This document shows, piece by piece, positions 13,736 through 59,034 of a DNA stretch of 64,000 bases. The notes under the pieces are model-generated. The model was not told the DNA's origin, ran no database searches, and saw nothing but the letters and a program-made list of their open reading frames with translations. Every line of letters begins with the position of its first letter. Within the stretch, counting starts at the first letter, position 1. The stretch lies in sequence record MK509462; one strand, written 5' to 3'. The stretch is from Shigella phage MK-13. The position numbers and the translations under genes are program-made.

Positions 13736-13903
13736 TTACTTTTTCTTCAGCTCGTCCAGTTTGGCTTCGATTTGTTCCAGGATGTCTTTACCCTTCTGAA
13801 CAATCACTTCACCGTCTTGCGCGTGTTTGCGGAATACCAGAGCGCCAGCTACGAAGCCGACAACCACACCAGGAAGCGCATAAACCAGCAGATCTTGTAA
13901 CAT
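13736..13903 (-). CDS. small membrane protein (55 aa; not in the ORF track)
   Basis: ATG at 13903 preceded by GAGGA SD; translation MLQDLLVYALPGVVVGFVAGALVFRKHAQDGEVIVQKGKDILEQIEAKLDELKKK. Confidence 0.45.
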   Translation of the reverse strand: MLQDLLVYALPGVVVGFVAGALVFRKHAQDGEVIVQKGKDILEQIEAKLDELKKK

Positions 13904-13906
13904 GAT

Positions 13907-13935
13907 AATATCCTCACTTTATAGGTGAGGATATT
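13907..13935 (-). promoter_or_regulatory. 11-bp-stem hairpin enclosing the SD of the 13736-13903 gene
   Basis: AATATCCTCAC ...7 nt... GTGAGGATATT; sits between the stop of the 410-aa gene (13940) and the next ATG (13903); no U-run. Confidence 0.4.
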
Positions 13936-13939
13936 TATA

Positions 13940-16626: not shown

Positions 16627-16931
16627 TATACAGCATCCTCAATACGCCAGCTCACGCCGCCCATCCATGGTGCCCAGAATACAGCAACCTGTGGGCGGCC
16701 ATTCTCTTCAAACTTCACTTTATACTGGTCGTCGAAGTTATAGAAGATTTCATCCGCTTCAGAGCGCTGACCGATCTCCACCAGTACGTCATGAAGAGCC
16801 TTGGCTGCGCCGATAGGAGTCGGAGTCTCCTGCTGGCGAATGAAGTTGTTGACATGGATAATCACGCCATCCATATCGCTATCACCGGAACGCTTGTCTG
16901 GGGTTTCCCCAAACTTGGATTGTTCTTGCAC
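16626..16931 (-). CDS. hypothetical protein (101 aa)
   Basis: Minus-strand ORF between the kinase and the HAD hydrolase. Confidence 0.5.
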   Translation of the reverse strand: MQEQSKFGETPDKRSGDSDMDGVIIHVNNFIRQQETPTPIGAAKALHDVLVEIGQRSEADEIFYNFDDQYKVKFEENGRPQVAVFWAPWMGGVSWRIEDAV

Positions 16932-18087: not shown

Positions 18088-18120
18088 AGGGGGAATTATA
18101 TCCCCCTTTGGTTTATTGAA
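18088..18120 (-). promoter_or_regulatory. Intergenic hairpin (AGGGGGA-attata-TCCCCCT) with TTCAATAAA flank
   Basis: 7-bp GC stem between the DNA polymerase stop (18121) and the next start (18067). Confidence 0.4.
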
Positions 18121-23857: not shown

Positions 23858-24312
23858 TCTTCCCAGAAGTCGTCATCGTCCCCGACGGCGGCCAGTTCCG
23901 TGTCCAGGTCTTCATCAGTGAACGGCGGTAGTACCCCATTCTGAATCAGATAATCCATTTCATCGTCTTCCAGCTGCAGGTCAGTGGCAATATACAGCGC
24001 TCCGCTGCCCTCTTCGTCCGTCTCGATACTGTACGAAGTGTATGGCACCCCATTCACTGTAATGATGATAGACGTTGGATCCTCGGGATCTACGTGCGCC
24101 TCGAACGGCACACCATCAATCGGCGCATCTTCCAGGAAGGTGGCAAGGGCTACAGCGGCGCGAACAACATCAGTGCCTTCAACGCCTGCATAGATCTCTT
24201 CCGCGCCCGTCTCTTCACGATCAAACAGCTCAATCGTGATACCGTCTTGAACACCAGTCCATACGGGGATGTCATTGGTGTATTCTGATTCAAACAATTT
24301 GGAGGTTGGCAT
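23854..24312 (-). CDS. hypothetical acidic protein (152 aa)
   Basis: Minus-strand ORF, Asp/Glu-rich. Confidence 0.55.
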   Translation of the reverse strand: MPTSKLFESEYTNDIPVWTGVQDGITIELFDREETGAEEIYAGVEGTDVVRAAVALATFLEDAPIDGVPFEAHVDPEDPTSIIITVNGVPYTSYSIETDEEGSGALYIATDLQLEDDEMDYLIQNGVLPPFTDEDLDTELAAVGDDDDFWEE

Positions 24313-24457
24313 GTTGGGTTCCTCAGTGGGTTAGCCATATGGGGTATTTAGGCTTCCCGCACCGCCAGGCCTGGTTTGTACAGGACGATCTCACGGAAAT
24401 ATTCAAGAAAGGTTTCATAGATACCCCACACGGGTTGTATGGGGTATTTAGAAGGGA

Positions 24458-26524: not shown

Positions 26525-26594
26525 TGGTGTATCCTCAAATCAATGATAGGGGTTTAACGGTTAAATTTTAAACCCCTATTGGTTGTTGAACAAA

Positions 26595-28093: not shown

Positions 28094-28177
28094 TGGTGTG
28101 AGTGGATGGATTCGAACCACCGCGCTGTTACGGGGAGATTTACAGTCTCCTGCATTCGACCGCTCTGCCACACTCAC
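28094..28177 (-). tRNA. tRNA-Tyr (anticodon GTA), type II with long variable arm
   Basis: Acceptor GTGAGTG/CACTCAC + A + CCA; anticodon stem GGAGA/TCTCC with loop CTGTAAA; T-arm GGTGG-TTCGAAT-CCATC; 84 nt. Confidence 0.75.
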
Positions 28178-28434: not shown

Positions 28435-28510
28435 TGGCGACGATGACAGGACTTGAACCTGTGACATATGGATTAACAGTCCACCGTTCTACCGACTGAA
28501 CTACATCGTC
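28435..28510 (-). tRNA. tRNA-Asn (anticodon GTT)
   Basis: Full cloverleaf: acceptor GACGATG/CATCGTC, D-arm GTTC-AGTCGGTA-GAAC, anticodon stem GTGGA/TCCAT with loop CTGTTAA, T-arm ACAGG-TTCAAGT-CCTGT, discriminator G, CCA; 76 nt. Confidence 0.9.
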
Positions 28511-28511
28511 T

Positions 28512-28736
28512 TTATCCGTGCTTGTTCGCTTCAATCGCCCTTAATTGGGCATCAGCGTCAGCTTTGGTGTCATGTGTACCAAGAACCTTCGTCTTGGTGT
28601 GGTCAAGGACAACCCACTTGTCACCTCGCTTTTCAACAAACTCGACAATCTCTTTGTTGTCGGTAGCGAGGCCATCCCACTCAGCAATAAAATCACCGAA
28701 CGTTTTCATCATACTCACCAATTGTTTATTGAACAA
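28512..28736 (-). CDS. hypothetical protein (74 aa)
   Basis: Clean minus-strand ORF ending 2 nt before tRNA-Asn. Confidence 0.5.
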   Translation of the reverse strand: MFNKQLVSMMKTFGDFIAEWDGLATDNKEIVEFVEKRGDKWVVLDHTKTKVLGTHDTKADADAQLRAIEANKHG

Positions 28737-32131: not shown

Positions 32132-32430
32132 GAGAGGTTCCTTAATATAGGGTTGATTGACCGGACTATTATATTTGGAAAGGTGTTATTGAATTAAAGG
32201 CCAACAAAATAGGAGTGCGGTTTATTAATAGGCAAAAACTACTTTTCTACAACACTCAGAGACTGTATCTTACTGTGGTGCCCTTTGAGTTGTGAGTGAT
32301 AACGAACAACGAAAAGCAGCCTCCATGGCTGTGGAATGGGACTGCCTGTCAAGGCGGTGTTACGAGCGTAGCGAGTAGGTTAATACTAATCGAGTAATAT
32401 AACGCGCGAGGAAGATTCAATCCCATCCCG

Positions 32431-32438
32431 CTAAATAT
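32431..32438 (+). promoter_or_regulatory. late-promoter-like motif CTAAATAT
   Basis: Variant of the T4 late promoter TATAAATA, about 40 nt upstream of the gp6-like start. Confidence 0.3.
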
Positions 32439-32477
32439 CTTCAACACCATATTCAAGTTCAGGTGATGGAGATAAAC

Positions 32478-34259: not shown

Positions 34260-35094
34260 CGGACACAATGGGGTGAAATATGAAACCCCATTGTTCTACC
34301 AGAATGAATTCCCAGTGTTCATCGAGTTCATGGACACGTTCTTCAACTGGCTGTATCGCCAGCAGGGATTCACCGAAGAGGAGATTTTGGCGTATCTGGC
34401 AGACACTGATGGTTGGGTGAACCCAAATACGGATCAGTCTCCTATTGAGCAGCTGATTGACATCAAGAAGCGCAAGACACCAGGGACCGAGGCCAAGGAC
34501 TTCTTGGAAGACAAGTTCCTGACGCGCACGTTTGAGAACATGATGGCGCTAGACTTCGAAAATTTGCTGGATGTAGACGGTCGGCCATTAATCTCAATGG
34601 AAGACAAGAACGAACGCATCGACGATTGGTATGCTGATTTTGGATTCCAGAGAACGGTTGATAAGACCTTCCTGGAGTTTGGGAAGTTTGTGCCAGTTGG
34701 TTCGGACAGTTTGGTGACTTCAGACGGAGACACGCTCTCTGTGTATGTCGAGGGAACCAAACGCCGAACGCTGGACCATGTCCGCTGGTTGAAGTTGCTT
34801 AAACACATTTATCGCATTCGCGGGACGAAGAAAGCGATTGAATTGTTCTTCTGGATTTACTTTGGTTGCCCAGTGAGTGTGTACTATCCCAAGGAAGAAA
34901 TTGGTGGTTTGGACGATAACTTTGAATGTGACGGCGCGACAGGAATGCGTGACGATTACTACTATGATGAATTCACGTATGTGATAAGAGTTCCTGGCGA
35001 CGTATCTGATTTTGAAGGTGTGTTTGAGCGCGTCTTCCGTCAGCATTTCCATCCTGCTGGGTTTACTGTATTCCTGGAAAGTTCAAGGAGTTAA
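34240..35094 (+). CDS. baseplate/virion structural protein (284 aa)
   Basis: ATG with GGAGG SD; between the gp6-like and tail-fibre genes. Confidence 0.45.
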   Translation: MSKDLNNGHNGVKYETPLFYQNEFPVFIEFMDTFFNWLYRQQGFTEEEILAYLADTDGWVNPNTDQSPIEQLIDIKKRKTPGTEAKDFLEDKFLTRTFENMMALDFENLLDVDGRPLISMEDKNERIDDWYADFGFQRTVDKTFLEFGKFVPVGSDSLVTSDGDTLSVYVEGTKRRTLDHVRWLKLLKHIYRIRGTKKAIELFFWIYFGCPVSVYYPKEEIGGLDDNFECDGATGMRDDYYYDEFTYVIRVPGDVSDFEGVFERVFRQHFHPAGFTVFLESSRS

Positions 35095-35096
35095 AA

Positions 35097-36308
35097 ATGG
35101 CCGATTTTCTGAGTCAATACACAGGTCAGCAGATTGATGCAATCCTTTCTTCTGTTGACGATAAAGTAAGCAAGAACGATGTTATCAACGATTTCGCTGT
35201 TGATGATCCGTTGTTTCCTCCTTCAGCTCATCTGACGTATGAACTGAAGCGTTCTGTGGATGACATCTACGACACGTTGGATAATAAGGTGATTCGCACC
35301 GACGGTGGGGAACAAACTATCAACGGGCGGAAGACTTTTGCCGCAGAAATCCGAGCCAATGCTGGTGTCAGTATCCCTACGGGGAAGAAACTTACCATCG
35401 CAGATGAGCCAGTTGATTCCACTGATGGCGTCAATCTGTCTATGCTGCGCAAGCACGGCGTGAGTGAAGACACTGCCGGGGTTAACTCTGGTCTGAAAAT
35501 CGAGTTGTTATCTGGCGGCTACAACAAACTCACTTTCGACGGCACAAATCTGGCCACTTACTCTGGTACTGGTGTGCCAACTACCATGTTACTGGTGAGT
35601 GGAACCGACACTGTCAAGTACGACACATCTGCGTTTGTGACTTCTATCTTCAATGATACGCGTTTCAACGCTTATCTGAAGGTTGTTGATTACGACGCCG
35701 ATATGTTGGATATCCAGTCTCAGTTCAATACTGTGAACACCACTCTGGCAGCGAAGGTCAACACATCGACTTACAACTCCAAGATGTCTAGCCTGGACAC
35801 CAGTATACTGGATCTGACGAACAACAAAGTGAACGTCAGTACGTATAACACGAAGATGGCGGCGTTGGACAGTTCCATCAGCGGCATTCAGAGTGATATC
35901 GGCACGATCAATACCACGTTGTCTGGAAAGGTCAACACATCGACCTACAACGCCAAAATGACAAGCCTGGACGCCGACATTGCTGCCCGTGTGAAGATCG
36001 GGAAGACCAACCCAAGCGGCATCACTGTCTCTGCTTCGGGGAACTCTGCGTTGCCCGACTTCGATTTGGTGAACCTTTGCCAAGTGTTGATCAGTGCACA
36101 ATGGGGTACAGGCAACGTCGTGGATACGTACCGCGTGACGATCACCCGTGACGGGACTATCAAGTCTGAGCTGTTGATTCAGAAGTCCACTTCCGGTACG
36201 GTGACATTCGCGGGTTCTGTAGTGTCTTCAAAACTTCGTTTGACGATAACAAATGCGAACACGACGACTGCGTGCTCTATTGATTATAGTCTGGTCGCTT
36301 CTTTCTAA
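35097..36308 (+). CDS. tail fibre protein with internal coiled-coil repeats
   Basis: N-terminal INGRKTF motif; three repeats of VNTSTYNxKMxxLDxxI (nucleotide repeats around 35752-35785 and 35926-35960). Confidence 0.65.
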   Translation: MADFLSQYTGQQIDAILSSVDDKVSKNDVINDFAVDDPLFPPSAHLTYELKRSVDDIYDTLDNKVIRTDGGEQTINGRKTFAAEIRANAGVSIPTGKKLTIADEPVDSTDGVNLSMLRKHGVSEDTAGVNSGLKIELLSGGYNKLTFDGTNLATYSGTGVPTTMLLVSGTDTVKYDTSAFVTSIFNDTRFNAYLKVVDYDADMLDIQSQFNTVNTTLAAKVNTSTYNSKMSSLDTSILDLTNNKVNVSTYNTKMAALDSSISGIQSDIGTINTTLSGKVNTSTYNAKMTSLDADIAARVKIGKTNPSGITVSASGNSALPDFDLVNLCQVLISAQWGTGNVVDTYRVTITRDGTIKSELLIQKSTSGTVTFAGSVVSSKLRLTITNANTTTACSIDYSLVASF

Positions 36309-36316
36309 AGTGAAAG

Positions 36317-36324
36317 CTAAATAC
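36317..36324 (+). promoter_or_regulatory. late-promoter-like motif CTAAATAC
   Basis: Lies within the 5' arm of the 36319-36357 hairpin. Confidence 0.35.
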
Positions 36325-36357
36325 CCCTAGATGAAACGAACACATTTAGGGGTATTT
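36319..36357 (+). promoter_or_regulatory. 11-bp-stem hairpin immediately upstream of the tailspike start
   Basis: AAATACCCCTA ...17 nt... TAGGGGTATTT ending 3 nt before the ATG at 36361. Confidence 0.45.
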
Positions 36358-36360
36358 GAA

Positions 36361-39255
36361 ATGGCTAATAAACCAACACAGCCTGTTTTCCCTCTCGGTC
36401 TGGTGGCTGAAGAGCAGTCTACTTTGGCTGGTATCCTCAACACGGGTACGATTGAGCATGGACCAGATGCTGTCCTGACTTTACCCGAGGGTAATGCCAG
36501 TGCAGGTCTCCCGTCTTCTGTTCGCTACAATGCCGACTCCGACGAATTTGAGGGCTTCTACGAAAATGGTGGATGGTTGCCGCTGGGTGGCGGTGGTATC
36601 CGCTGGGAAGCCCTTCCGCATGCCTCTACGGCAACGCTCACTGAAGGGCGAGGCTATCTGGTAGACAACTCCACAGGCGTCTCTACGGTGGTGTTCCCTT
36701 CCCCTACGCGCATTGGCGATTCTGTTACAGTCTGTGACTTGTATGGAAAGTTCTCCCTGTATCCCCTGACCATTGACCCAAATGGTCGCCCAATGTATGG
36801 CTCTGTAGAGCCTATGACGCTCTCCACCGACAGCGTATCTGCGACCTTTACCTGGTCTGGTGACGCGCGTGGCTGGATTGTGACTGCTGGCGTCGGCCTT
36901 GGGCAGGGGCGCGTGTATAGCCGCACGATCTTCACTGAAACCGTTTCGGTAGACACCGCTCAAGTTACTCTGACAACGCAGCCGTCGATTGTTGATGTGT
37001 ATGTTGACGGCAAGCGCCTGCTGGAATCAAAGTATTCCCTCAATGGTTTCAATGTCGACTTCAGTCCATCAATCCCATCAGGTTCCGAGCTGCAGGTCAT
37101 CCAATACGTCCCGATCCAGTTAGGCAATGGCTCCGGTGGTTCCGGCGGCGGTACGGTTATCACTTGGATCTACAATAGTGGATCAGCTGCGGGTGGTGAA
37201 ACCGAGATCGAGTTGGACGTGGATGCCGAAGATGTTTCTGAGATCTTTATCGATGGATCCCGCCAGCAAAAAGGTCTGGGCTTCACTTATGACTCCGTTA
37301 CGAAGATCATCACGCTGGCCGACGAACTCGAAGCTGGTGATGAAGTTGTTGTCGTCATCAATGGCGACCCAACCCTGTACAATCAGATCGACCGTACACC
37401 AAACGAAGTGGCGCGTTCCGTGAACGTGCCGAATTCTCAGGTTATTTTGTCGTCCGATACCATCACCAAACTGGACGGAAAGACGGTTATCTATGATGTG
37501 GTGGCGCAAAAGATTTGGAGCTTACCTTCTGGTATCCCGACAGGTTCTTCTGTTGTATCTGTGAGTGGGAGCACTCTGACATATGCACCAGGGAATGTTG
37601 TTGTTTCTTTGCTCTTGCCGACTTCTGAAAGTTTGGTCGTTTTCCAAGAATTATTAGAGTCTAATGCGGGGGTTGGGTCTATTGGTGGCGTTGCTGTGGA
37701 ATTAGGAGACCGAAACTCGCTAAACTCGAACCAGACCGTGCTCGGGCGTATTGTGGCCAGCAAAACTCTTTCTGGTATTTACAACAAATATTCAGTTGTT
37801 CCCAACACAGGTAAAGTTGCTGACGGTGTGGTATTAATTGACCGCCTGGACGGTAATCAACTTGAAATTCAATTTGAAGACTATATTGATGTTCGCGCTT
37901 TCATGTTCGGCGCAATGACAGATCAGGAAACATTACAGGCAGCATTGGATTATGCGGATAGTGTTTCCGGACATTGCGTAATTGGCATCACACCCAAAAA
38001 CAAAAATGGAGACCCTTGGGTGTTCACGCATCTGCATATTGGTTCTAAAACTATTGTTAAGGGTGCAGGCGGCTGGTTGAAATTCGCAGATAATGTTTGT
38101 AATGATGCGACCAAAGCATATTATCTTGTCGAGAACTTTGATGCACAGGATACCCATTTAATAGATTTGTATATAGACGGAAACCAAGCAAGCAACACAT
38201 TGTATGCTGTAGCCGACATCTTAACGTTCGGTGGGAATCGATGCTCTATCACCAACTGTAAGCTCGTGAATGCCCCCGACTCAGGTCTGATGTTTGCGAC
38301 TACCAAAAACTGCTGGGTGAATGGTCTTTATGTAGAAAACACGCGCGACCTTGGGATCTACTTATCTGCAAGTGTGGCAGGCGGTACTCGTAACTGCGCA
38401 ATGTCCAACCTGGTGTTGCGCGACTGCGCTCAAGGGGCTATGGGTTTCAAACGCTACGTTGCCGACATTGTTGTGGATAATGTTGTAGCCACCAACTGTG
38501 GTAATGGAATCACCTTTGAAGGTTTTGAAGTTGTGACGCCGGGTATGAACCCATCCAATATCACTATGAGCAATATACGTCTGCGTGATATTGGATTTGG
38601 TTATCGGTCTGTTTCAGCGGCAGAGCGAGCTTTAAGTTTCGATTATGCTCGCGGCATCCGTATTAGCAACCTCAGCGTTCAGAACTGTTCTGGTGTCGGT
38701 ATCTTCTTCAGCACTAACACAAGTACTGGTATTTACATTAATGGCGCTAACTTAACTGGATATGCTGCTAACCCACAAATCGCGAGTGGTGTCCCAAACA
38801 ACGATGGTATTCAGTGTAATGGTGCTTCTGGTTTTGAACTGATTAATGTGAACTTGGAAGGGTTCGCAAGATACGCAGCTTGGTTCCTGAGCTGTAGTGG
38901 CGGCAGCGTGGTCGGTGGTCGTTGGACTAATACCCAGGCTAGTGGATATAATGCATACAACGGCGCACGTGTAAATGCAGCCTGTAGTTTCACTAAGTTT
39001 TCGCCTGAGTTTATTAGTGGGGCGAGCGGAACAGACCTAGAATGGTTTAATGGTGCGACTGGAATTACCAAAGACACGATACTGAACAATGCTACTGGCC
39101 CAGCAAAATATGGGTATGTTGTCGTCTCTGGTCCTACGCCTGTGGCTACAGTAACCCCCCGTTTTATTGGGCAGGAAGTCTGGAGTGCAGGTGCGAGTTC
39201 CTGGTGGAAATCACATGGCTTAACCTCCTCAGACTGGAAACAGATGTCAAATTGA
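36361..39255 (+). CDS. tailspike protein (right-handed beta-helix), 964 aa
   Basis: Repeated beta-helix coil motifs (VATNCGNGITFEG, VQNCSGVGIFFST); in the tailspike cluster. Confidence 0.75.
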   Translation: MANKPTQPVFPLGLVAEEQSTLAGILNTGTIEHGPDAVLTLPEGNASAGLPSSVRYNADSDEFEGFYENGGWLPLGGGGIRWEALPHASTATLTEGRGYLVDNSTGVSTVVFPSPTRIGDSVTVCDLYGKFSLYPLTIDPNGRPMYGSVEPMTLSTDSVSATFTWSGDARGWIVTAGVGLGQGRVYSRTIFTETVSVDTAQVTLTTQPSIVDVYVDGKRLLESKYSLNGFNVDFSPSIPSGSELQVIQYVPIQLGNGSGGSGGGTVITWIYNSGSAAGGETEIELDVDAEDVSEIFIDGSRQQKGLGFTYDSVTKIITLADELEAGDEVVVVINGDPTLYNQIDRTPNEVARSVNVPNSQVILSSDTITKLDGKTVIYDVVAQKIWSLPSGIPTGSSVVSVSGSTLTYAPGNVVVSLLLPTSESLVVFQELLESNAGVGSIGGVAVELGDRNSLNSNQTVLGRIVASKTLSGIYNKYSVVPNTGKVADGVVLIDRLDGNQLEIQFEDYIDVRAFMFGAMTDQETLQAALDYADSVSGHCVIGITPKNKNGDPWVFTHLHIGSKTIVKGAGGWLKFADNVCNDATKAYYLVENFDAQDTHLIDLYIDGNQASNTLYAVADILTFGGNRCSITNCKLVNAPDSGLMFATTKNCWVNGLYVENTRDLGIYLSASVAGGTRNCAMSNLVLRDCAQGAMGFKRYVADIVVDNVVATNCGNGITFEGFEVVTPGMNPSNITMSNIRLRDIGFGYRSVSAAERALSFDYARGIRISNLSVQNCSGVGIFFSTNTSTGIYINGANLTGYAANPQIASGVPNNDGIQCNGASGFELINVNLEGFARYAAWFLSCSGGSVVGGRWTNTQASGYNAYNGARVNAACSFTKFSPEFISGASGTDLEWFNGATGITKDTILNNATGPAKYGYVVVSGPTPVATVTPRFIGQEVWSAGASSWWKSHGLTSSDWKQMSN

Positions 39256-39295
39256 TCCGATTCTGTCTAGAGATGTCTAGCAACTTCTATCGATA

Positions 39296-39313
39296 AAGCC
39301 CCTTCAGGGGCTT
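39296..39313 (+). promoter_or_regulatory. GC hairpin GCCCC-ttca-GGGGC
   Basis: Between tailspike genes; near-identical to the 44306-44319 hairpin. Confidence 0.4.
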
Positions 39314-39336
39314 CGTGAGAACAACAGGAGATTCAC

Positions 39337-41439
39337 ATGAATCCGCAATTCAATCAGCCGAAAGGTTCAACGGCCAAAGAAATCAACAAAAACCCGCGTG
39401 AATTATGGCGTCGGACTTTGTCGGAATTGGGTCTTAATTTGGTCGAAGGTAGTTTTGAAGACGGTGCTACTGTGGCGACTGCAACTGACGTCGTGTGGCA
39501 TATCAATGGCGCCCAGTGTTACACCTGGGGTGGGTCTTTACCCAAGACTGTAGACAAAAACTCAACACCGCAATCAACTGGTGGGATATCCGGAGAAGCT
39601 TGGAAGAAATACGATGAAACTTCTCAGGTTACGACACCAGGATACTATGGCGGAACTTGTTTCCCCACGGAAAATAATCTCTCCTTGGCCGTCGGGGATA
39701 TTATCCCGTCAGGAGTAATGTTCGTCAGAATTGATGGTAATCTGATGATGATGAGTTCTTCTCTGACGGAACCCGTGACTGTCACCAGTTTTGATCAGAC
39801 TGTGATCAATGGCTTGCATGAGTTGTATCCAGTATCATTCTTTAACGAAGTGATCACGGGATGGAAGATTGCCCAGAATGACGCACAGCTTACGCGTTTA
39901 CTCCCAAAGGCAGGGAATATTTACATTGGTTATTCTCCAGTGAAAGTTGAAGGAATCTTCATTATTCAGGGAGATATCCGACTCAAGCCATTGCTGCCAA
40001 AAGTAACCGTTGATTCACGTCAGTTCTGGTTGAGATCGCCGCGCGCCTGGAACGAAACAAACCAGGAATATGACTACACCGCGTACGATATTCGTATTGT
40101 CGGTAACTTCCTGTTTGACTTCTATAGGCAAGATGCTTCCTTTGACCCAGGCGTTGGACTAGCTATGCAGTCCGCTGGAACTCTGGAGCTTTCCGGGTGT
40201 GAGTTACAAGGTGCGTGGAGAAGCAACGTAACCATGGATTATGGGCGCTGGTCTATTGCAGACAACTTGTATTCACATGATTGTGGCAGGGGGCAGATTC
40301 AAAATCCAGATGGTAGCAACCGCAATGGTATGGCTATTATTGTTGGTAATGCGACAGAAGCACATATCCATCATATCCGCACCAGAACCACTTGGGCATC
40401 CTCTGTCTTTGTTGATTCTTACCGCCCTGGACGAACGCTTAACGTGATGATCCATGACGTTAGTATTAACGGTTCTGGTGGTAACGGCCTGCGCCTTCAA
40501 TCTGACGATCTTGTTACCGGTGTTGGCGGCGGGCAGGGTACTGCAATTACTCGTGTAAACATCAGCGGCGTAACAATTAAAAACTGTGAATCGCATGGCA
40601 TCCGCGCAAACTTCACCAACGGAAGCGTTACGGGCGTATACATTGAGTCATGTAACGCGGGTATTGCCATTGAGGGTTCTAGTGATGTCACGTATGACAA
40701 CATCACCATCAGGAATTGCTCACAGCCAATCCTCTGTCGATATTATCCGGTAGTCTGCACACGCCTGCGATTTAGTAATATCTTAATATCAGGCCACACA
40801 GATTGGGCTGTGTTCTTTTTGCGTAAGGATGGCTCCTCTCACACGGTAAATCTAGGTGATATTGAATTCGACGGGTTGACAATCCACTGCACACAACCTG
40901 GTTCTAAAGCTGTTATGATTAACTGCGGGTCGAACGCAACAGCTACTTCCGACATCACTATGAAGAACGTGCGTATTGTTGGCGCATTTCCTGATACAGA
41001 CGGAACAGCACTCTGTCAGATTCATAATGCACGACATATTGAAGTAGATAACTGGAACATCAGAGGTGTTAACGGGCTTCCTAGTTCTTATTTGTATGCG
41101 CAAGCATCTCAGAGCTTGAACGTGCATCGCCTGGTTGGCGTTCAACCGTTTGGTACTGTTGATCGTCCTATTGAGTGCGTTGGCGTGGCTGGTCACGTAA
41201 ACATTGTGAATTGTTCTGTTCCTGTAACCACGAACGGAATATTATATACTTCAACTCCTGCATCCCGTTACGAAGAAGGGAACCAGTTTTACAATAGCGC
41301 TCAACCACAACAATTCCCGTTCACCAACGCTGGGCAGTTGCGTGGTGGTGATGTGAACACGTTAACAACCACGCAACTGGCAAACATAGTGGCTACGCTG
41401 ATTAACGATATTAGCCTGGGTAAATTCGTAATCAGATAA
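39337..41439 (+). CDS. tailspike protein, 700 aa
   Basis: N-terminus MNPQFNQPKGS...YTWGGSLPK shared with the 44459 gene; beta-helix-like repeats. Confidence 0.75.
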   Translation: MNPQFNQPKGSTAKEINKNPRELWRRTLSELGLNLVEGSFEDGATVATATDVVWHINGAQCYTWGGSLPKTVDKNSTPQSTGGISGEAWKKYDETSQVTTPGYYGGTCFPTENNLSLAVGDIIPSGVMFVRIDGNLMMMSSSLTEPVTVTSFDQTVINGLHELYPVSFFNEVITGWKIAQNDAQLTRLLPKAGNIYIGYSPVKVEGIFIIQGDIRLKPLLPKVTVDSRQFWLRSPRAWNETNQEYDYTAYDIRIVGNFLFDFYRQDASFDPGVGLAMQSAGTLELSGCELQGAWRSNVTMDYGRWSIADNLYSHDCGRGQIQNPDGSNRNGMAIIVGNATEAHIHHIRTRTTWASSVFVDSYRPGRTLNVMIHDVSINGSGGNGLRLQSDDLVTGVGGGQGTAITRVNISGVTIKNCESHGIRANFTNGSVTGVYIESCNAGIAIEGSSDVTYDNITIRNCSQPILCRYYPVVCTRLRFSNILISGHTDWAVFFLRKDGSSHTVNLGDIEFDGLTIHCTQPGSKAVMINCGSNATATSDITMKNVRIVGAFPDTDGTALCQIHNARHIEVDNWNIRGVNGLPSSYLYAQASQSLNVHRLVGVQPFGTVDRPIECVGVAGHVNIVNCSVPVTTNGILYTSTPASRYEEGNQFYNSAQPQQFPFTNAGQLRGGDVNTLTTTQLANIVATLINDISLGKFVIR

Positions 41440-41473
41440 ATAAGGGTCGCAGGATTAACCCCTTATCCATTCA

Positions 41474-41481
41474 CTAAATAC
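41474..41481 (+). promoter_or_regulatory. late-promoter-like motif CTAAATAC
   Basis: Overlaps the 5' arm of the 41478-41510 hairpin. Confidence 0.35.
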
Positions 41482-41510
41482 CCCATATTGGCAAATCCTC
41501 TATGGGGTAT
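41478..41510 (+). promoter_or_regulatory. 10-bp-stem hairpin sequestering the start region of the next tailspike gene
   Basis: ATACCCCATA ...13 nt... TATGGGGTAT; the 3' arm contains the ATG at 41502 and the SD-like region for the ATG at 41517. Confidence 0.45.
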
Positions 41511-41516
41511 CTTCAA

Positions 41517-44297
41517 ATGTCTAGAAACGTCGAGAGCATCTTTGGAGCGGTTGTAACAGCCCCGCACCAGATTCCATACACTTACACCGCAACGGGTGGA
41601 GAGACGTTTATCTCCCTCCCGTTCTACCCTGTTACAGGCTTCATCACCATCAATGGTGGGGTTCAGGTTCCTGTCGACAACTATGAAATTGATGGTAACA
41701 CTGTGAACCTCGGTCGAGCGCTAGAGGCTGATGATGTAGTGTACTGTCTGTTCGACAAGATCCTGTCCCCAGAAGATTATGAAAACGGGATCCGAATCTA
41801 CAAGTTCCAGGCCGTTGGCAACGAGACCTCATTCACCCCAGACTTCACGACGTATGGTGTGCAATCCCTGTATATCGATGGGAAGTTCCAGGTTCCTGGG
41901 GTTGACTACAATTACAACAGCGCAACTGGTGTGGTGTCATTCCTGAATGGATCTCCGACTGCTGGTGTTTGGGTTGTGGCTGAGATGTCTGTGAAGCAAA
42001 ACTATCTGGCTCTGTCTTCGGAGGGTGGTGCCAGTTTGGTAGGCACGACTTCTGGCAGCACTGTGCAGGAAGAGTTGAACGATGTTGCTGGGCAGCTAGC
42101 CAATTTAGAAGATGATCTTTCTACATTGAAAATTGCAGTGGCCAGTGTTTCCTTTACTCAATTTGGGGCAGTTGGTGACGGCGTGGCTAACGACACGCAC
42201 GCCGTAAAACTGGCGTTCGATTATGCTCTTGCTAATAACGTTGCAGTCGAGCAGCATAGCGGTGTTTTCTTGCTGGATGGCACTGAATACATTGATATCA
42301 GAAACCTGCAAACCGACCTCACCGGATGCGTCCTTAAGCCATCCGCATCATGGACTGGTCAGATTGTGATTTCTCAGACTGGCGCGCCTGTCACTTACGG
42401 TTCTAGTTCTGATGTCGTGACAAAACTTAATACTAACAGTCCAGCCAGCCGCGCCGTTGGAAGTACGATAATGAGCGGGATCGCAACTGATAGCACTTTG
42501 GATGGATGCTACGTCAAAATATCGACTTCTCAGCCAATGTTCGTATTCAGGGACGCTACTTACACAAGGAAAGACCTGAACAGAGTTTATAACCGAGGCA
42601 ACATAGAGAACCCGTTACGCTATGGCCTAGGAACGAATGTTACAGAAGTTATTGCGCTGAAAATTCGCAAAGACGTGCAGACTGTTAAAGGGCTTACTAT
42701 TGATGAAAGCCTGTCGAAAAACTATCGCATTGTGTACATCAACAACGCATCACGCGTTAAGCTTGTCAACACGTCTTTCATCAATGCCCCGATAACGCAG
42801 GATTTCAGTGATACCAGAATTGATATTGCAGGCTCATATGACGTGGAAATTGACGGCCTGTTCACACCGTCTGTGGTCGATTCGTTCAACGGCACTGGTG
42901 ACATCTACTCGTATTCTCTGGGTATAAGCGAGAGCATGAATGTCAGAGTGAAGCATATGACTGCTAACGGTGAAGGATGGGGCGCGACCGGTAGCAACAA
43001 CAGCGCAAACATTACTTTCGAAGAATGCGACTTGAGCAGGATTGACTTTCATATGCCTTTCCAGGGATATTTGCGTGTCAATAAATGCAATGTTGGACGA
43101 TACGGTGTAGTTGTAACTGGCATTGGTGACCTAATCATTGATGATGTCATCTTTAATGGTTCAACTGACCAGCTGGGTTCAATTATCGCCACTCGTCCTG
43201 ACTGCGGCGGGTTCTTCGATGGTGACCTGTATATGTCAAATGTGACTATCGCTGGTCGCCGTTCCGGTCAGATTTCGGCACTAATCCAGGGACCTGCTGA
43301 TGCTGGGCAGGGACCAGCATCAGGATCGCCCATCAACAGCACTCTTTTCAATAAAGTTGTTATTCGCGACCTAAAACTGAAAGACGGATTCTTTGAGCAG
43401 ACTTTTGCCACGCTACTGTATTCCCAGCGTGATTCACAACTACTGTTCCCAAAAGTGGTCGATATTGACGGGCTAAGTTTTGGGGCGCTGCCAAAATCAT
43501 CTGGGGTTGGCCTGAATATCGACTTCTCGCGATTTAAAGCGCTGTTCTCTGATATGACAAACTCAGAGCATCCAGTAACAGGAAGAAAAACGACCGATAT
43601 TATTTTACGTAATATTCAAACACCATATCTGTCGGTAACAGCGGCATCAGCGCGTCATAACCCCTCTATTGTCGCAAGTAACGTGCGTCATGTGATAAGT
43701 GGCGAAGTAGATACGCTGCTGGAGATTAACCAGCGTGGCAGATATTTGTTAGATTCATGCTCACTTGAGCAGTTGAAGCTTTTTTATGGTTCGAACCCCA
43801 ATGGCCTGGTAAGTCTCACAATGCGTGGCGGCAGACTTCAGCAGCCTGTTGCAGCAACCATGCCTATTTCTGGTGAAACCACGCACAGCGTCACCCTAGA
43901 TGGAACGGATATTGTGTGCCAGTTCAACGGGCAAGACTCAACATACCCGATCACCAAAGCAATCATTGCCAGGGCGCTTGTTAAAGACTGTAGATATTGG
44001 GATGTTTCTGGCGCAAGACTAAACAATTTGAGTTTCGTTAAGCCTGAAAGCACTAGCACCACTATAACTGTGACTATGAAGGTTGGTCAAAAATTAGCAG
44101 TGTCTACCGGATACACAGCAGGCAATACTTACACAAGAAGCAACTTTACCGCGTTGTGGGAGTCAGGTGCCAAGCAAGTAGCAAGCATTGGCGCGGCAGG
44201 CAACGTGATTGTCACATATACGGTATCAGGTGATTCGGTTTCACAGATAGTAATGACAAGTCCAGCAAGTAATGAGATCCGCGACGTGTCAATTTAA
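41517..44297 (+). CDS. tailspike protein, about 926 aa
   Basis: Start ambiguous (41502 or 41517); beta-helix-like repeats; N-terminal anchor-like region. Confidence 0.7.
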   Translation: MSRNVESIFGAVVTAPHQIPYTYTATGGETFISLPFYPVTGFITINGGVQVPVDNYEIDGNTVNLGRALEADDVVYCLFDKILSPEDYENGIRIYKFQAVGNETSFTPDFTTYGVQSLYIDGKFQVPGVDYNYNSATGVVSFLNGSPTAGVWVVAEMSVKQNYLALSSEGGASLVGTTSGSTVQEELNDVAGQLANLEDDLSTLKIAVASVSFTQFGAVGDGVANDTHAVKLAFDYALANNVAVEQHSGVFLLDGTEYIDIRNLQTDLTGCVLKPSASWTGQIVISQTGAPVTYGSSSDVVTKLNTNSPASRAVGSTIMSGIATDSTLDGCYVKISTSQPMFVFRDATYTRKDLNRVYNRGNIENPLRYGLGTNVTEVIALKIRKDVQTVKGLTIDESLSKNYRIVYINNASRVKLVNTSFINAPITQDFSDTRIDIAGSYDVEIDGLFTPSVVDSFNGTGDIYSYSLGISESMNVRVKHMTANGEGWGATGSNNSANITFEECDLSRIDFHMPFQGYLRVNKCNVGRYGVVVTGIGDLIIDDVIFNGSTDQLGSIIATRPDCGGFFDGDLYMSNVTIAGRRSGQISALIQGPADAGQGPASGSPINSTLFNKVVIRDLKLKDGFFEQTFATLLYSQRDSQLLFPKVVDIDGLSFGALPKSSGVGLNIDFSRFKALFSDMTNSEHPVTGRKTTDIILRNIQTPYLSVTAASARHNPSIVASNVRHVISGEVDTLLEINQRGRYLLDSCSLEQLKLFYGSNPNGLVSLTMRGGRLQQPVAATMPISGETTHSVTLDGTDIVCQFNGQDSTYPITKAIIARALVKDCRYWDVSGARLNNLSFVKPESTSTTITVTMKVGQKLAVSTGYTAGNTYTRSNFTALWESGAKQVASIGAAGNVIVTYTVSGDSVSQIVMTSPASNEIRDVSI

Positions 44298-44303
44298 AGT
44301 GCT

Positions 44304-44324
44304 TAAGCCCCTTCGGGGGCTTTC
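44304..44324 (+). terminator. rho-independent terminator-like hairpin
   Basis: GCCCC-ttcg-GGGGC followed by TTTCC. Confidence 0.5.
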
Positions 44325-44458
44325 CAATGAGGAACTACACCACCAGTCAACACTAGACATTCTCGAAATTAGACTTCTTGGCGTTTAAACCCAAAATGCA
44401 GAAGAAACGAGTATTATTTGAATTCAATAAACATGACTAAAACAACAGGAGATTCTTT

Positions 44459-46243
44459 ATGAATCCGCAATTTTCACAGCCGAAAGGCTCTGTCTCCAAA
44501 GAGACAAACAAGGACTCCATTGCTCGCAAGTTTGGGTGCAAGAAGTCTGAGGTTCTCTATGCTAAACCAGGTGCTGTCCTGACAGGATACAAGGTGATCT
44601 ACGATAAGGTCACTCAGCGCTCCTATGCACTGCCTTCTAACCTGCCCGCTGGCGCTACCATCACCAGCCTGACAGACGGCATTCTCGTGCACAATACGGG
44701 TACTGTCGATCTGGGTGTTCTCGCAGTGCTTCGGAAGGAATTTGTAACTTTGATCGAAAACTTCGACTCAGGGTTCACAATTCGTGTTAGAAATGAAGTC
44801 GTTTCTGATGGTACAAATCTTTACCGTTGGGGTGGGACTTTACCCAAATCTGTAAACGCTGGTGGCACCATTGCCAATACTGGTGGATTGTCAAGTTCTA
44901 ACTGGGTGAAATTGGATCCAGATGCATTGAGAGATGAGTTATACTCTGGGTTTTATCGTCTAACTGTTATCGACCCTTCGATGTCTCAGTCTCTTATACA
45001 AACTAAATTATCCCAGGGTGGGACATTCCAGTTTCTTCCTGGCAACTATACGGTAACTGGCCAGGCGTTGGCGTTTTATCCTAACTCTGAAATTTATGCG
45101 CATTCCGGCGCTTTATTCTTGGCTGGCGAAAACAACGTTGGTGTACTCACGATTGACCCTTCTCGTTCTGGTGGAAATGCAGTGAGAAACTGCAAATTAC
45201 ACAATATCAGGATATCATTGAATGGTAAAACGGGTTGCGTCGCTTTCAGAGCCAAATATTGGAGGAACCATGGTCATCTAGATATGATGTGGGTAGACAT
45301 GGGGACAGCCATTAATAACGTCGGGATAGAGATAGGGACTTTGTGTTATGGATTGAAGATAGACGGTTGTGAGGTTATCGGTGGTGGGGCTGGTTCGAGT
45401 CGGTTAATAGTACAGAACGGAGCCAATGCTATCGTTATAACAGGATTTGATGGTTATTCCGGTGCTCCGGAAGTGGATATGCCGGATTATGGTATTATCG
45501 TAAGACACTCTACCGACGGCGGGACTTCTTGGGATTATACCACAACATTCCCCACAGAAGCAGTCTGTTTTGTTAACGGATTCAGCCAGAATACCACGAA
45601 GTATGGTTTCTTGGATCAGGCCAAGGGAACTAAGGTGTATGGAATGTATTATGAGAACAATAGTATCTCTGATGTCCGCATCAGTGGTTCTCAAGATGCC
45701 ACATTCCGAGATTGTACACACTCTTCCCCAAGCCAAGGAACCCTCGCGCATGGGTATAGTATAACCAACTCCACCAACAGCTTAATTGATGAGCCGATAT
45801 GGGGAACAAGGGCTGGAGGTTTCTTCGACATTGGTGGTGCACAAGACGCCGGTGTGACTGGCCACATAGTCAACATCGCACGTTGGGGCGCAAGTCGAGG
45901 CATTGATGATCTCGGCGTTGTAACGGCATGTAAATTAAGTCGTGGAAAATTGCCATTACAGCTCACAACTGACTCTGTCGACATAAACAGCGGTTATGGG
46001 TGCTATCGAAGAAACGTTTCTTCTGGTTCCAACATCGCATTTACTGGTACGCCATATGATGGTATGGAGCTGACGTTTTTACTGAGAGGTTCAAACATTG
46101 CTTCATTGAGCATAGCGGGTGTCCCTGTCGATGTGACTGGTGCCAACACCGCCACCACGAAAATGAATCTCGTGAAAATGGTGTATTCAAAAGTAACGAG
46201 CACATGGGTGATCAATGCTGGTCAATGGAATGCTTCCGCTTGA
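44459..46243 (+). CDS. tailspike protein, 594 aa
   Basis: N-terminus MNPQFSQPKGS...YRWGGTLPK shared with the 39337 gene; conserved upstream AACAACAGGAGATTC. Confidence 0.75.
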   Translation: MNPQFSQPKGSVSKETNKDSIARKFGCKKSEVLYAKPGAVLTGYKVIYDKVTQRSYALPSNLPAGATITSLTDGILVHNTGTVDLGVLAVLRKEFVTLIENFDSGFTIRVRNEVVSDGTNLYRWGGTLPKSVNAGGTIANTGGLSSSNWVKLDPDALRDELYSGFYRLTVIDPSMSQSLIQTKLSQGGTFQFLPGNYTVTGQALAFYPNSEIYAHSGALFLAGENNVGVLTIDPSRSGGNAVRNCKLHNIRISLNGKTGCVAFRAKYWRNHGHLDMMWVDMGTAINNVGIEIGTLCYGLKIDGCEVIGGGAGSSRLIVQNGANAIVITGFDGYSGAPEVDMPDYGIIVRHSTDGGTSWDYTTTFPTEAVCFVNGFSQNTTKYGFLDQAKGTKVYGMYYENNSISDVRISGSQDATFRDCTHSSPSQGTLAHGYSITNSTNSLIDEPIWGTRAGGFFDIGGAQDAGVTGHIVNIARWGASRGIDDLGVVTACKLSRGKLPLQLTTDSVDINSGYGCYRRNVSSGSNIAFTGTPYDGMELTFLLRGSNIASLSIAGVPVDVTGANTATTKMNLVKMVYSKVTSTWVINAGQWNASA

Positions 46244-46250
46244 TAGACAA

Positions 46251-46280
46251 AGCCCCTCAGATGAGGGGCTTTTTCTTTCT
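46251..46280 (+). terminator. strong rho-independent terminator
   Basis: AGCCCCTC-agat-GAGGGGCT followed by TTTTTCTTTCT. Confidence 0.65.
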
Positions 46281-52812: not shown

Positions 52813-52820
52813 CTAAATAC
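52813..52820 (+). promoter_or_regulatory. late-promoter-like motif CTAAATAC
   Basis: 23 nt upstream of the ATG at 52843. Confidence 0.35.
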
Positions 52821-52842
52821 CTTCAAAATTGAGGGTATCGAT

Positions 52843-54193: not shown

Positions 54194-54895
54194 ATGAGTG
54201 CTATGTCAGAACGCCTATTGTCCACCCTCGGTGCTATCCAAGCGCGGGATGAGGTCGCTCAAGAAGTCATGGAGAAGACCTCGCCTGTGGCTGGAAAAGA
54301 TTATGATCCGGATACAGGCGAATGGTTGGGTGAAAAGCCTGCAGGGTATGAGCCTGTGGTGTTCCCTCCTTCTCTGGACCCAGAAGAGCTGAAGTCCAAG
54401 GAATCTAAGGTTCCAGACTTCGAAGACACGGACGCCACCACCGACTACAAACGCATCCGTGACACGACTTATGCCATGCAGGAAGCCACGATGTTCATGA
54501 TGGGACAGGCGGCCAAACTCGCGACGACCACTGAAGCACCCCGCGCGTTCACAGTCTTCAAAGAGTTGGGCGAACTCATGCGCGGTCTGAACAAAGACCT
54601 GATGGAGAACCAGAAGACCATCAAGGCCGTTACAGGCGACAAAGAGCCACCTCCTGGGGACGAAACAACCGTCGAGGTCACCACGTCCCCTGATGGCACA
54701 ACCACGGTCAACGTCGGCAAACAGGCCAGGTCTTCCCGTGATCTACTGAAGACCATCGAAGACGCCCGTAAACGTGCTGAAGAACGTACTGCAGCGAAAG
54801 CTGCGTCCAAAGGACCTGATCCCGAAGAAGATGTAATCGAAGTTCAGGCAGAGCCGAAGGAAGAAGGTGAAGACGATGGCGTATCAGAAGCGTGA
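54194..54895 (+). CDS. terminase small subunit (putative)
   Basis: ATG at 54194 with GGAG SD; immediately upstream of and overlapping the large terminase; charged low-complexity C-terminus. Confidence 0.5.
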   Translation: MSAMSERLLSTLGAIQARDEVAQEVMEKTSPVAGKDYDPDTGEWLGEKPAGYEPVVFPPSLDPEELKSKESKVPDFEDTDATTDYKRIRDTTYAMQEATMFMMGQAAKLATTTEAPRAFTVFKELGELMRGLNKDLMENQKTIKAVTGDKEPPPGDETTVEVTTSPDGTTTVNVGKQARSSRDLLKTIEDARKRAEERTAAKAASKGPDPEEDVIEVQAEPKEEGEDDGVSEA

Positions 54896-57138: not shown

Positions 57139-59034
57139 ATGGCAACTCAAAGCTTCAGCGTTGCGCCGTCCGTACAGTGGACCGAGCGTGATGCCACGCT
57201 TCAGACGTCTCCATCCGTTGTTGTTCAGGGTGCGACCGTCGGTAAATTCCAATGGGGTGAAGCAGAACTCCCTGTGTTGGTCACTGGTGGTGAAACTGGT
57301 CTGGTGAAGAAATTCTTCAAGCCAAACGATGCAACTGCCACCGACTTCCTGGTGATTGCTGACTTCCTGTCTTACAGCTCTGTTGCATGGGTGACCCGTG
57401 TGGTCGGTCCGGCGGCACGTAACGCTGTAACCAAAGGTCAGACTGCAATCCTTATCCGTAACAAACTGGACTTCGAAACCGCGTCCCCATCTGCGTCTAT
57501 TACCTGGACAGGCCGCTATGCTGGCTCCCTGGGTAACGACGTTGCGATCAACGTGTGTGATGCTGCTGGATTCCCGACTTGGGAATTCCGTAACAACTTC
57601 GCCTATGCTCCACAGGCTGGCGAATACCACATCGTCATCGTTGACAAAGTCGGTCGCATCACAGATTCTTCTGGCGCTGTTGGTCAGGTTGATCGTATCT
57701 CTGTATCCGGTACGGCTACTGGTGCAGGCTCAATCTCTGTTGCTGGCGAAGACGTGGCGTACACTGACACTGACACCCCGGCCACCCTGGCGACCAAAAT
57801 CGGCACTGCGTTGACGGCTCTGACTGACGTGTATTCTTCTGTTGTCGTGAAGTCCAACACCGTCACCGTCACTCACAAAGCAATCGGTCCTCAGGCTGTG
57901 ACTGCTATCGTTCCTGATGCGAACGGTCTGACTGCGACTGCAGTGATCACCACTGTTGGTGCTTCCGGTTCCATTATTGAAAAATATGAACTGATGCAGC
58001 TGACTCAGGGATCCAAGAAATCTGACGGCTCCAATGCGTACTTCAAAGATGTGATCAACGACACCTCCAACTGGGTGTACACCTTTGCAAGCACTCTGAC
58101 CGCTGGCGTGACTGAGCTGGAAGGTGGTGTGGACGACTACACTGGCAACCGTGTAGCGGCTATCGAAGCCCTGAACAATGCCGAAGCATACGATGCCAAG
58201 CCTGTGTTCGCATACTGTGAAGAACTCATCGAGCAGCAGACGCTGATCGACCTCTCCACCGAGCGTAAAGACACCGTGTCCTTCGTGTCTCCTCTGCGTG
58301 ACGTTGTGGTCGGCAACCGTGGTCGTGAGATGGACGATGTCGTTGCTTGGCGTGAAAGCCTGGTGCGTGACTCTTCCTACTTCTTCATGGACGACAACTG
58401 GGCGTATGTGTACGACAAGTACAACGACAAGATGCGTTGGATCCCTGCGTGTGGTGGTACGGCGGGTGTTTGGGCACGTAGCATTGAGATCGCGGGTATC
58501 TACAAATCCCCTGCGTTCCACAACCGTGGCAAATACAACAACTACAACCGCATGGCGTGGTCTGCGTCTTCTGACGAACGCGCTGTCCTGTATCGCAACC
58601 AGGTTAACAGCATCGTTACCTTCTCCACTGAAGGCATCGTTCTGTACGGCGATAAGACTGGTTTGACTCGTCCGTCCGCGTTCGACCGCATCAACGTTCG
58701 TGGCCTGTTCATCATGGCCGAGCAGAACATCGCTGCCATCGCCAAATACTACCTTGGTGAGAACAACGATGAATTCACTCGTAGCCTGTTCAGCAACGCT
58801 GTACGCCCATACATCCGCCAGCTGGCCAACATGGGTGCGATCTACGATGGTCAGGTGAAGTGCGACGCCGACAACAACACCGCCGACATCATCGCTGCGA
58901 ACCAGATGGTTGCGGGTATCTGGTTGAAACCAGAATACTCCATCAACTGGGTGTATCTGGACTTTGCTGCAGTACGTCCGGACATGGAGTTCAGCGAGAT
59001 CGAAACTGGCGGTGGCATCGTAGCCGCTTCCTGA
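57139..59034 (+). CDS. tail sheath protein (T4 gp18-like)
   Basis: Matches recalled gp18 motifs: GKFQWGE, DKYNDKMRWIP, IVLYGDKTG, FDRINVRGLF. Confidence 0.9.
   Translation: MATQSFSVAPSVQWTERDATLQTSPSVVVQGATVGKFQWGEAELPVLVTGGETGLVKKFFKPNDATATDFLVIADFLSYSSVAWVTRVVGPAARNAVTKGQTAILIRNKLDFETASPSASITWTGRYAGSLGNDVAINVCDAAGFPTWEFRNNFAYAPQAGEYHIVIVDKVGRITDSSGAVGQVDRISVSGTATGAGSISVAGEDVAYTDTDTPATLATKIGTALTALTDVYSSVVVKSNTVTVTHKAIGPQAVTAIVPDANGLTATAVITTVGASGSIIEKYELMQLTQGSKKSDGSNAYFKDVINDTSNWVYTFASTLTAGVTELEGGVDDYTGNRVAAIEALNNAEAYDAKPVFAYCEELIEQQTLIDLSTERKDTVSFVSPLRDVVVGNRGREMDDVVAWRESLVRDSSYFFMDDNWAYVYDKYNDKMRWIPACGGTAGVWARSIEIAGIYKSPAFHNRGKYNNYNRMAWSASSDERAVLYRNQVNSIVTFSTEGIVLYGDKTGLTRPSAFDRINVRGLFIMAEQNIAAIAKYYLGENNDEFTRSLFSNAVRPYIRQLANMGAIYDGQVKCDADNNTADIIAANQMVAGIWLKPEYSINWVYLDFAAVRPDMEFSEIETGGGIVAAS

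Follow-up and report, generated by a model that had tools for sequence, protein, structure and literature searches.

Phage T4 is known to tie the translation of some genes to the transcript on which they are read. On the longer, early transcripts of T4 e, soc, 49, and I-TevI, the Shine-Dalgarno sequence (SD) and/or the AUG is sequestered; a late promoter lies in the DNA encoding the 5' strand of the sequestering hairpin, and late transcripts, which lack that strand, are translated (PMC3014915). The same arrangement is described for I-TevII/III, segB, and mobE of Aeromonas phage Aeh1 (PMC2988022). The mechanism is experimentally shown for e, soc, 49, and I-TevI and is only proposed for segB and Aeh1 mobE. 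The T4 reviews name about seven genes (e, soc, 49, I-TevI/II/III, segB; PMC3014915, PMC2988022), and fifty T4 late-promoter sites have been listed (PMC2988020). The T4 late box, TATAAATA, occupies positions -13 to -6, and Aeh1 has a C at -12, i.e. CTAAATA (PMC2988020). Here we describe such an arrangement in a stretch of 64,000 nucleotides (nt) from Shigella phage MK-13 (MK509462; Ackermannviridae, near Agtrevirus), referred to below as the window, in which hairpins containing a late-promoter-like box precede two tailspike genes. A first-pass annotation of the window had likened these hairpins to those of T4, whose reviews describe exactly such an arrangement. The principle is known from T4, and its probable occurrence in Ackermannviridae would add a new case.

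The two loci, upstream of the genes for tailspike 1 (TSP1; site 1) and tailspike 3 (TSP3; site 2), consist of the following elements:

36317..36324, plus strand: late-promoter box CTAAATAC of site 1, with the TAAATA core at 36318-36323 and a predicted late start at ~36329
36319..36329, plus strand: 5' arm AAATACCCCTA of site 1, extended by RNAfold to 36318-36333; the predicted anti-SD is CCCC at 36324-36327
36347..36357, plus strand: 3' arm TAGGGGTATTT of site 1, containing the SD GGGG at 36349-36352
36361..39255, plus strand: coding sequence (CDS) of TSP1; the start at 36361 is conserved, and the in-frame ATG at 36331 is not the true start
41474..41481, plus strand: late-promoter box CTAAATAC of site 2, upstream of TSP3, with a predicted late start at ~41486
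41478..41487, plus strand: 5' arm ATACCCCATA of site 2
41501..41510, plus strand: 3' arm TATGGGGTAT of site 2, containing the SD GGGG at 41504-41507
41517..44297, plus strand: CDS of TSP3; the start at 41517 is conserved, and the in-frame ATG at 41502 is not the true start

Site 1 forms a perfect 11-bp stem (AAATACCCCTA with TAGGGGTATTT) whose 3' arm stops 3 nt short of ATG 36361, and in RNAfold the stem grows to 16 bp, including two G.U pairs. In its 81-nt context the fold has an energy of -25.8 kcal/mol (z = -6.1), which none of 200 shuffles equaled. The perfect 10-bp stem of site 2 (ATACCCCATA with TATGGGGTAT) stops 6 nt short of ATG 41517, and its fold by itself stands out only modestly (z = -2.1; 8 of 200 shuffles did as well). 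Both stems therefore have the length and the closeness to the start that the first-pass annotation had described, and both 5' arms begin within the CTAAATAC box, as it had also noted. Its single stem sequence for the two sites survives in part: ATACCCC/GGGGTAT is found in both, and site 2 does not have AAATACCCC/GGGGTATTT, of which AAATACCCC is the opposite (minus) strand of site 1. Sequestration of the start region, likewise, applies to the SD and not to the start codon itself; at both sites the SD GGGG, 8-9 nt before the ATG, lies inside the 3' arm. A GGGG of the site 1 type is annotated as a ribosome-binding site (RBS) in the record of phage Marshall.

The starts proposed by the open reading frame (ORF) finder, 36331 and 41502, are in-frame ATGs within the hairpins, 30 nt and 15 nt too early. 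All four long ORFs of this region (36361, 39337, 41517, 44459) gave tail-spike family matches, and a megablast of 35000-42500 found Shigella phages ChubbyThor and Ag3 and Salmonella phage SKML-39 (Agtrevirus) as the best matches, followed more remotely by Dickeya Limestonevirus and many Salmonella/Escherichia Kuttervirus records. TSP1 and TSP3 had been called paralogous; their best local protein match is 29% over 63 amino acids (E = 8e-4), a similarity so weak that the term is too strong, and they are not close paralogs.

We consider it moderately probable that the two cassettes exert T4-type control, in which a late-promoter box in the 5' arm of the hairpin serves to mask the SD and the gene's own late transcripts escape. 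This mechanism, already put forward in the first-pass annotation, is the best-supported reading, and every computationally testable part of it holds. As we envisage it, many of the phage's gp55-type late promoters, (C)TAAATA, would form part of the 5' arm in an RNA hairpin. The pyrimidines that separate the box from the predicted start (CCCC, CCTTC, TCTTC, TCCTC) would serve as the anti-SD, and the last box bases would pair with the UAU(UU) directly 3' of the SD. Transcripts entering from upstream would bear both arms, fold, and hide the SD. Polymerase at the gene's own late promoter would start ~6 nt past the box and produce a translatable transcript without the anti-SD, and translation of the gene would be tied to the firing of that promoter. 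The analysis itself shows the sequences and folds, their conservation, and a link to boxes and SDs beyond chance; the start position, the existence of the read-through transcripts, and the effect on translation are parts of this scheme that we infer. As in T4, a gp55-type -10 box lies in the DNA for the hairpin 5' strand that pairs with the SD, and as in Aeh1 the box is of the CTAAATA type; unlike the T4 cases, those described here belong to another phage family and are known from sequence alone, and downstream of the box they are GC-rich (CCCC), where T4 is AT-rich.

The box is assigned as a putative late promoter at the level of its motif. CTAAATAcCcc is one of two regulatory motifs typical of the Viunalikevirus/Ackermannviridae group (PMC7283392). 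It has exact matches in the window at 36317, 41474, 24351(-), and 24451(-), and exact copies are intergenic and precede structural genes. In the record of phage LIMEstone1 (HE600015.1), a "putative late promoter" is annotated at the position orthologous to the TSP1 box and, more generally, at orthologous places before tailspike genes and gp6, in agreement with the late-promoter-like motif of the first-pass annotation. The literature on Ackermannviridae genomes that we covered, which did not include the original 2012 description, gives CTAAATAcCcc as a bare motif, and we found in it no mention of a hairpin or of SD pairing. Homologs of gp55, gp33, and gp45 are annotated in LIMEstone1 (ORF091, ORF053, ORF120) and reported for Ag3 and CBA120; judged from these genomes of relatives, the gp55/gp33/gp45 late transcription system is present in the family.

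When the start position was carried over from the T4/Aeh1 spacing as the 6th nt after TAAATA, the predicted starts fell at ~36329 (TSP1) and ~41486 (TSP3), with the anti-SD at about -5 to -1. Since this spacing puts the start just past the anti-SD, late transcripts would lack the inhibitory arm; at all strong sites the partner of the SD lies between the box and the predicted start and would therefore be absent from the late transcript. If late transcripts instead began upstream of the box, the hairpin would be a 5'-terminal stem-loop that stabilizes the RNA or is opened by a phage factor, like Mu Com/mom. The start sites are known by prediction only, and folding is very strong, with energies down to -25.8 kcal/mol, both of which leave room for such an arrangement. 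We nevertheless judge it very improbable: the family encodes gp55/gp33/gp45 and the box aligns with the T4/Aeh1 late boxes at -13 to -6, the diversity of the arms from site to site speaks against one RNA-binding activator, and abundant structural proteins would be ill served by an SD that always stays masked.

An inverted repeat of 10 bp alone is not rare, with 53 pairs in 64 kb. The box CTAAATAC occurs 7 times in the window against 0.87 expected and AAATACCCC 5 times against 0.17 expected; GGGGTAT has 12 copies against 3.7 expected, 7 of them being reverse complements of the box or 3' arms. GGGGTAT as a generic RBS was considered and rejected, as outside the promoter sites it occurs near the chance rate. 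When we compared the energies of duplexes between promoter and SD segments in the window, cognate pairs had a mean of -8.53 kcal/mol versus -5.20 kcal/mol for non-cognate pairs, and none of 20000 derangements was as low. LIMEstone1 (150 kb) provided an independent set, with 28 usable late promoters of the 33 annotated by its authors; there the means were -7.06 (cognate) and -4.34 kcal/mol (non-cognate), and 0 of 20000 re-pairings reached the cognate mean. Strong cognate pairing was found at about 11 of these 28 promoters, among them those of gp26, the endolysin, uvsW, ORF129, two tailspikes, gp6, ORF173, the intron endonuclease I-LimII, and ORF191. We further defined strong sequestration as an SD-zone unpaired probability below 0.15 on the read-through transcript and a boxed gene as one with TAAATA at -60 to -15. 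Among the 193 LIMEstone1 CDS scored, the SD was strongly sequestered in 10 of 31 boxed genes versus 6 of 162 unboxed ones (Fisher p = 1.2e-5; Mann-Whitney p = 5e-7). Chance is rejected because the coincidence of box and stem with SD and start codon recurs and because of the derangement and Fisher results.

LIMEstone1 resembles T4 in the kinds of gene affected, in that its endolysin and an intron-encoded endonuclease carry the hairpin, like T4 e and I-TevI, and structural genes are affected in both phages. The arrangement is far more frequent than in T4, at ~10 of 31 boxed LIMEstone1 genes and 6 of 13 window sites.

The window contains at least six instances, at TSP1, TSP3, gp6, a neck gene, a gene for a 55-amino-acid membrane protein, and a gene remnant. 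These six strong instances are among 13 sites that combine a box with a gene; boxes at window sites lie 29-47 nt upstream of the starts, and the 3' arms of the strong instances end ~0-6 nt before the ATG, with the SD inside. The four instances in addition to TSP1 and TSP3 are as follows:

32431..32477, plus strand: site of the baseplate gene gp6, with box CTAAATAT and ATG 32478
32436-32448 and 32462-32474, plus strand: gp6 5' arm TATCTTCAACACC and 3' arm GGTGATGGAGATA, the latter with the SD GGAG
52813..52842, plus strand: site of the neck/head-closure gene, with 5' arm ATACCTTCA at 52817-52825, 3' arm TGAGGGTAT at 52830-52838, one U.G pair, and ATG 52843
13904..13938, minus strand: site of the gene for a 55-amino-acid membrane/coiled-coil protein, with box ATAAATA and ATG 13903
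13935-13925 and 13917-13907, minus strand: 5' arm AATATCCTCAC and 3' arm GTGAGGATATT of the 55-amino-acid gene, a perfect 11-bp stem with the SD GAGGA in the 3' arm
24419..24451, minus strand: site of a 31-codon remnant, with box CTAAATAC, 5' core ATACCCCA at 24447-24440, 3' core TGGGGTAT at 24428-24421, and ATG 24418

TAAATA boxes without a strong stem lie at 24351(-), 46301, 57090, and 62613.

For each site, the mean unpaired probability of the SD zone was computed on transcripts beginning 60 nt upstream of the box (read-through) and at box+11 (late). On the long transcripts, a helix with stems of 10-16 bp pairs the SD with upstream sequence, and the unpaired probability of the SD zone is 0.01-0.22. 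The predicted SD accessibility rises from 0.01 on the read-through transcript to 0.55 on the late one at TSP1, from 0.03 to 0.34 at TSP3, from 0.10 to 0.35 at gp6, from 0.22 to 0.43 at 52843, from 0.08 to 0.58 at 13903, and from 0.17 to 0.46 at 24418. At two stem-free sites it is 0.36-0.52 already on the long transcript.

The arms vary among sites yet remain complementary: CCCC/GGGG, CCTTCGCA/TGCGGAGG, TCTGTACA/TGTGGAGA, TCCTCGC/GTGAGGA, and CTCTTT/AAGGAG. At the endolysin site, orthologs alternate between C-G and U.G opposite the GG of the SD, and in four of the six window stems the sense strand is ~3 kcal/mol more stable than the antisense strand, via G.U pairs. Sense-strand stability and the C-G/U.G switches together favor an RNA structure over a DNA one. 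Covariation among orthologs of TSP1, TSP3, and gp6 was uninformative because the stems are nearly invariant, gp6 showing one improving and two breaking changes; the useful covariation is that between paralogous sites and at the endolysin site. These patterns bear on the notion that the repeats have no function at the RNA level, arising simply because a pyrimidine-rich promoter discriminator stands opposite a purine-rich SD, or reflecting something at the DNA level, for instance a cruciform or a promoter copy on the other strand. Pyrimidine runs do follow the box at several hairpin-free sites as well, the minus strand of site 1 does read AAATACCCC, and true face-to-face late promoters form palindromes in LIMEstone1 (16682/16709). 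We regard this explanation as improbable all the same. The derangement tests preserve the composition of both segments and still gave 0 of 20000; the UAU(UU) after the SD and the CCCCATA/TATGGGG extensions are needed by neither box nor SD and are conserved while the loops vary; G.U pairs, and the replacement of C-G by U.G, agree with RNA and not with DNA; and in the minus-strand copies (TCAAATAC) the T of the box is missing and no gene follows.

The face-to-face boxes of LIMEstone1, TAAATAG...CTATTTA, occur at divergent gene pairs (16682-16709 in the sequence labeled L021; 3070-3079 and 12029-12034 in L023) and give rise to inverted repeats at late promoters in a different way.

With their GC-rich stem flanked by an A-tract and UAUUU, the hairpins also resemble rho-independent terminators. 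They could be mainly terminators, insulators, or 3'-end stabilizers for the upstream unit, with a promoter in the 5' arm that restarts transcription and with SD masking as a secondary effect. Besides the layout of A-tract, GC stem, and UAUUU, this receives support from an ARNOLD terminator annotation (-12.5) on the Taipeivirus ortholog of site 1, from the plain GC hairpins that precede TSP2 and TSP4, and from the LIMEstone1 terminators 54223-54250 and 92858-92885, which after correction for a shift appear to coincide with the endolysin and ORF129 promoter hairpins, UUUUCUU following both. Unlike terminators, however, the hairpins in the window lack a U-tract (tails GAAAUGGC, CUUCAAAU, AACAUGGC, AUCAUGUU, none of which passes the terminator scan), and the stem lies downstream of a promoter and includes the SD. 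An SD inside a 3' arm that ends ~0-6 nt before the ATG is not needed by a terminator, and its presence in the strong window instances argues for SD masking as the common selected property. Real terminators in the window (46249-46272, 13710-13675) stand directly after stop codons and upstream of promoters. We thus hold a primarily terminator-like role to be unlikely, and an intrinsic terminator in the strict sense is rejected for the window sites, as the scan called none of the six and the tails hold 1-3 U in 8.

The shift mentioned above concerns the LIMEstone1 record itself. All 18 minus-strand "terminator" features of HE600015.1 that we tested (e.g. 15238-15271) seem to be displaced by the length of one feature; folding energies are 0 to -5.6 kcal/mol for the stretches as annotated and -12 to -20 kcal/mol for those directly upstream. 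At 58489-58527 (-) in the same genome, a late box lies in the loop of a terminator-like hairpin, CCCCCT-AAATAC-AGGGGG with a U-rich tail, and not in a 5' arm.

The first-pass annotation had argued for a conserved regulatory cassette, and conservation extends well beyond the two genes on which it was based. The TSP1 cassette is found in four genera (Agtrevirus, Limestonevirus, Kuttervirus, and Taipeivirus), the region being matched by 268 phage records; its core CTAAATACCCCTAG...CTAGGGGTATT is invariant, its loops vary, and in Taipeivirus only the inner stem is rebuilt. The TSP3-type cassette is conserved before the tailspike gene while the upstream flanks are unrelated between genomes, so the cassette moves together with the gene's 5' end. 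The arrangement is family-wide and not tailspike-specific.

Several points weigh against T4-type control as a full account. A literature search found no 5'-end, transcriptome, or expression data for any Ackermannviridae phage, and the start position is transferred from T4. The hairpin is present at only about a third of late promoters and has been gained and lost among lineages, being found at gp26 in some lineages only and differing at gp14 between LIMEstone1 and the window. The predicted late leaders are not fully open (0.34-0.58). CCCC follows the box at 24351 too, where there is no complementary SD, so some of the motif may be part of the promoter proper. Upstream of TSP1, TSP3, and gp6, we found only late or divergent early promoters and no obvious early read-through, and the gp6 and gp26 sites lie in divergent intergenic regions.

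The last of these points touches on what the hairpins would be for. The early-type motif TTCAAT-N14-TATAAT occurs 19 times in the window against 4 expected, with its best matches on the minus strand in the left half. The sites at 13938(-) and 24451(-) lie at the ends of early-type promoter units with no convincing terminator-like site between and, being downstream of early promoters, fit the T4 early/late logic, the 55-amino-acid gene being the last of a minus-strand unit that starts at an exact early-type promoter (18095-18120). The plus-strand structural cluster at 32.4-46.2 kb has late promoters only and one convincing terminator, 46249-46272. Unlike in T4, several sites (gp6, the tailspikes, and the neck gene) stand in purely late clusters where no early read-through is predicted, and with late promoters alone upstream, the targets of the TSP1 and TSP3 hairpins would be late polycistronic transcripts begun at the gp6 or TSP1 promoter. 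The early-versus-late logic is therefore clear for 13938 and 24451 and not obviously applicable at the tailspike sites, where the hairpins may insulate the genes or set stoichiometry rather than timing, and may also act by partial termination or by protecting 3' ends. The LIMEstone1 gene maps did not discriminate, a co-oriented upstream gene being present at 8 of 10 hairpin sites and 10 of 17 hairpin-free ones.

A broader proposal, which we offer tentatively and with more doubt than confidence, is that promoter plus anti-SD hairpin constitutes a general modular insulator and not only a temporal switch, with the "cCcc" of the published motif being the anti-SD and not a promoter determinant. The pairing itself already points to "cCcc" being, in part if not in full, an anti-SD instead of a promoter determinant. 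If the insulator proposal is true, about a third of late genes, those in all-late operons like the tailspikes included, would depend for translation solely on their own primary transcripts, protein stoichiometry would be set by promoter strength, and tailspike modules could move between genomes with a self-contained expression cassette.

Several neighboring features deserve mention. TSP2 and TSP4 (39290-39345 and 44305-44465, plus strand) have no late box; a GC hairpin precedes each (AGCCCCTTCAGGGGCT; AGCCCCTTCGGGGGCT), and their leaders are near-identical, AACAACAGGAGATTC...ATGAATCCGCAATT, which looks like a duplicated module junction of another type than the TSP1/TSP3 cassettes. At gp6, a copy of the early motif with 2 mismatches (TTCAAT-N14-TATCTT; 32416-32441, plus strand) overlaps the late box and may make a dual promoter; its TTCAAT part is not conserved in relatives. 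The 55-amino-acid protein (13736-13903, minus strand; PHROG 3879, unknown function) has a hydrophobic N-terminal segment and a charged coiled-coil tail. With a perfect 11-bp promoter hairpin that would gate it tightly, and as the last gene of an early unit, it may have a role in lysis timing. At 24312-24451 (-), a full promoter, hairpin, and ATG 24418 are followed by just 31 codons until the late promoter at 24351; the equivalent place in LIMEstone1 holds ORF173, a structural gene of 152 amino acids, so the homolog seems to have been deleted in the window and its control region kept.

Elsewhere in the window, the early-type motif repeatedly overlaps GC-rich hairpins or terminators on the minus strand (10764-10805, 13672-13716, 18088-18120, 26546-26590), with the -10 TATAAT lying in the hairpin loop at 18088-18120; such terminator/promoter overlap may represent another recurring design of the genome. 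Rfam at the gathering threshold returned only two tRNAs for the whole window and no family match at the hairpin sites. The tRNA genes (28097-28177 and 28438-28510, minus strand) lie downstream of an early-type promoter at 28708-28733.

With T4-type control at these sites, a post-transcriptional mechanism known from T4 would reach into a second large family, one of phages for therapy and biocontrol (Kuttervirus, Agtrevirus, Limestonevirus, Taipeivirus), and there it seems to be employed much more frequently than in T4 itself. It would explain the scattered labels that one and the same cassette has received, namely late promoter (LIMEstone1), terminator (KWBSE43-6), and RBS (Marshall). The in-frame ATGs within the hairpins mislead ORF callers. 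The proposed mechanism predicts that transcript 5' ends in Ackermannviridae lie ~6 nt after TAAATA. When tailspike modules are swapped, the cassette of promoter, hairpin, and SD should be kept intact, as expression may otherwise fail or be mistimed.

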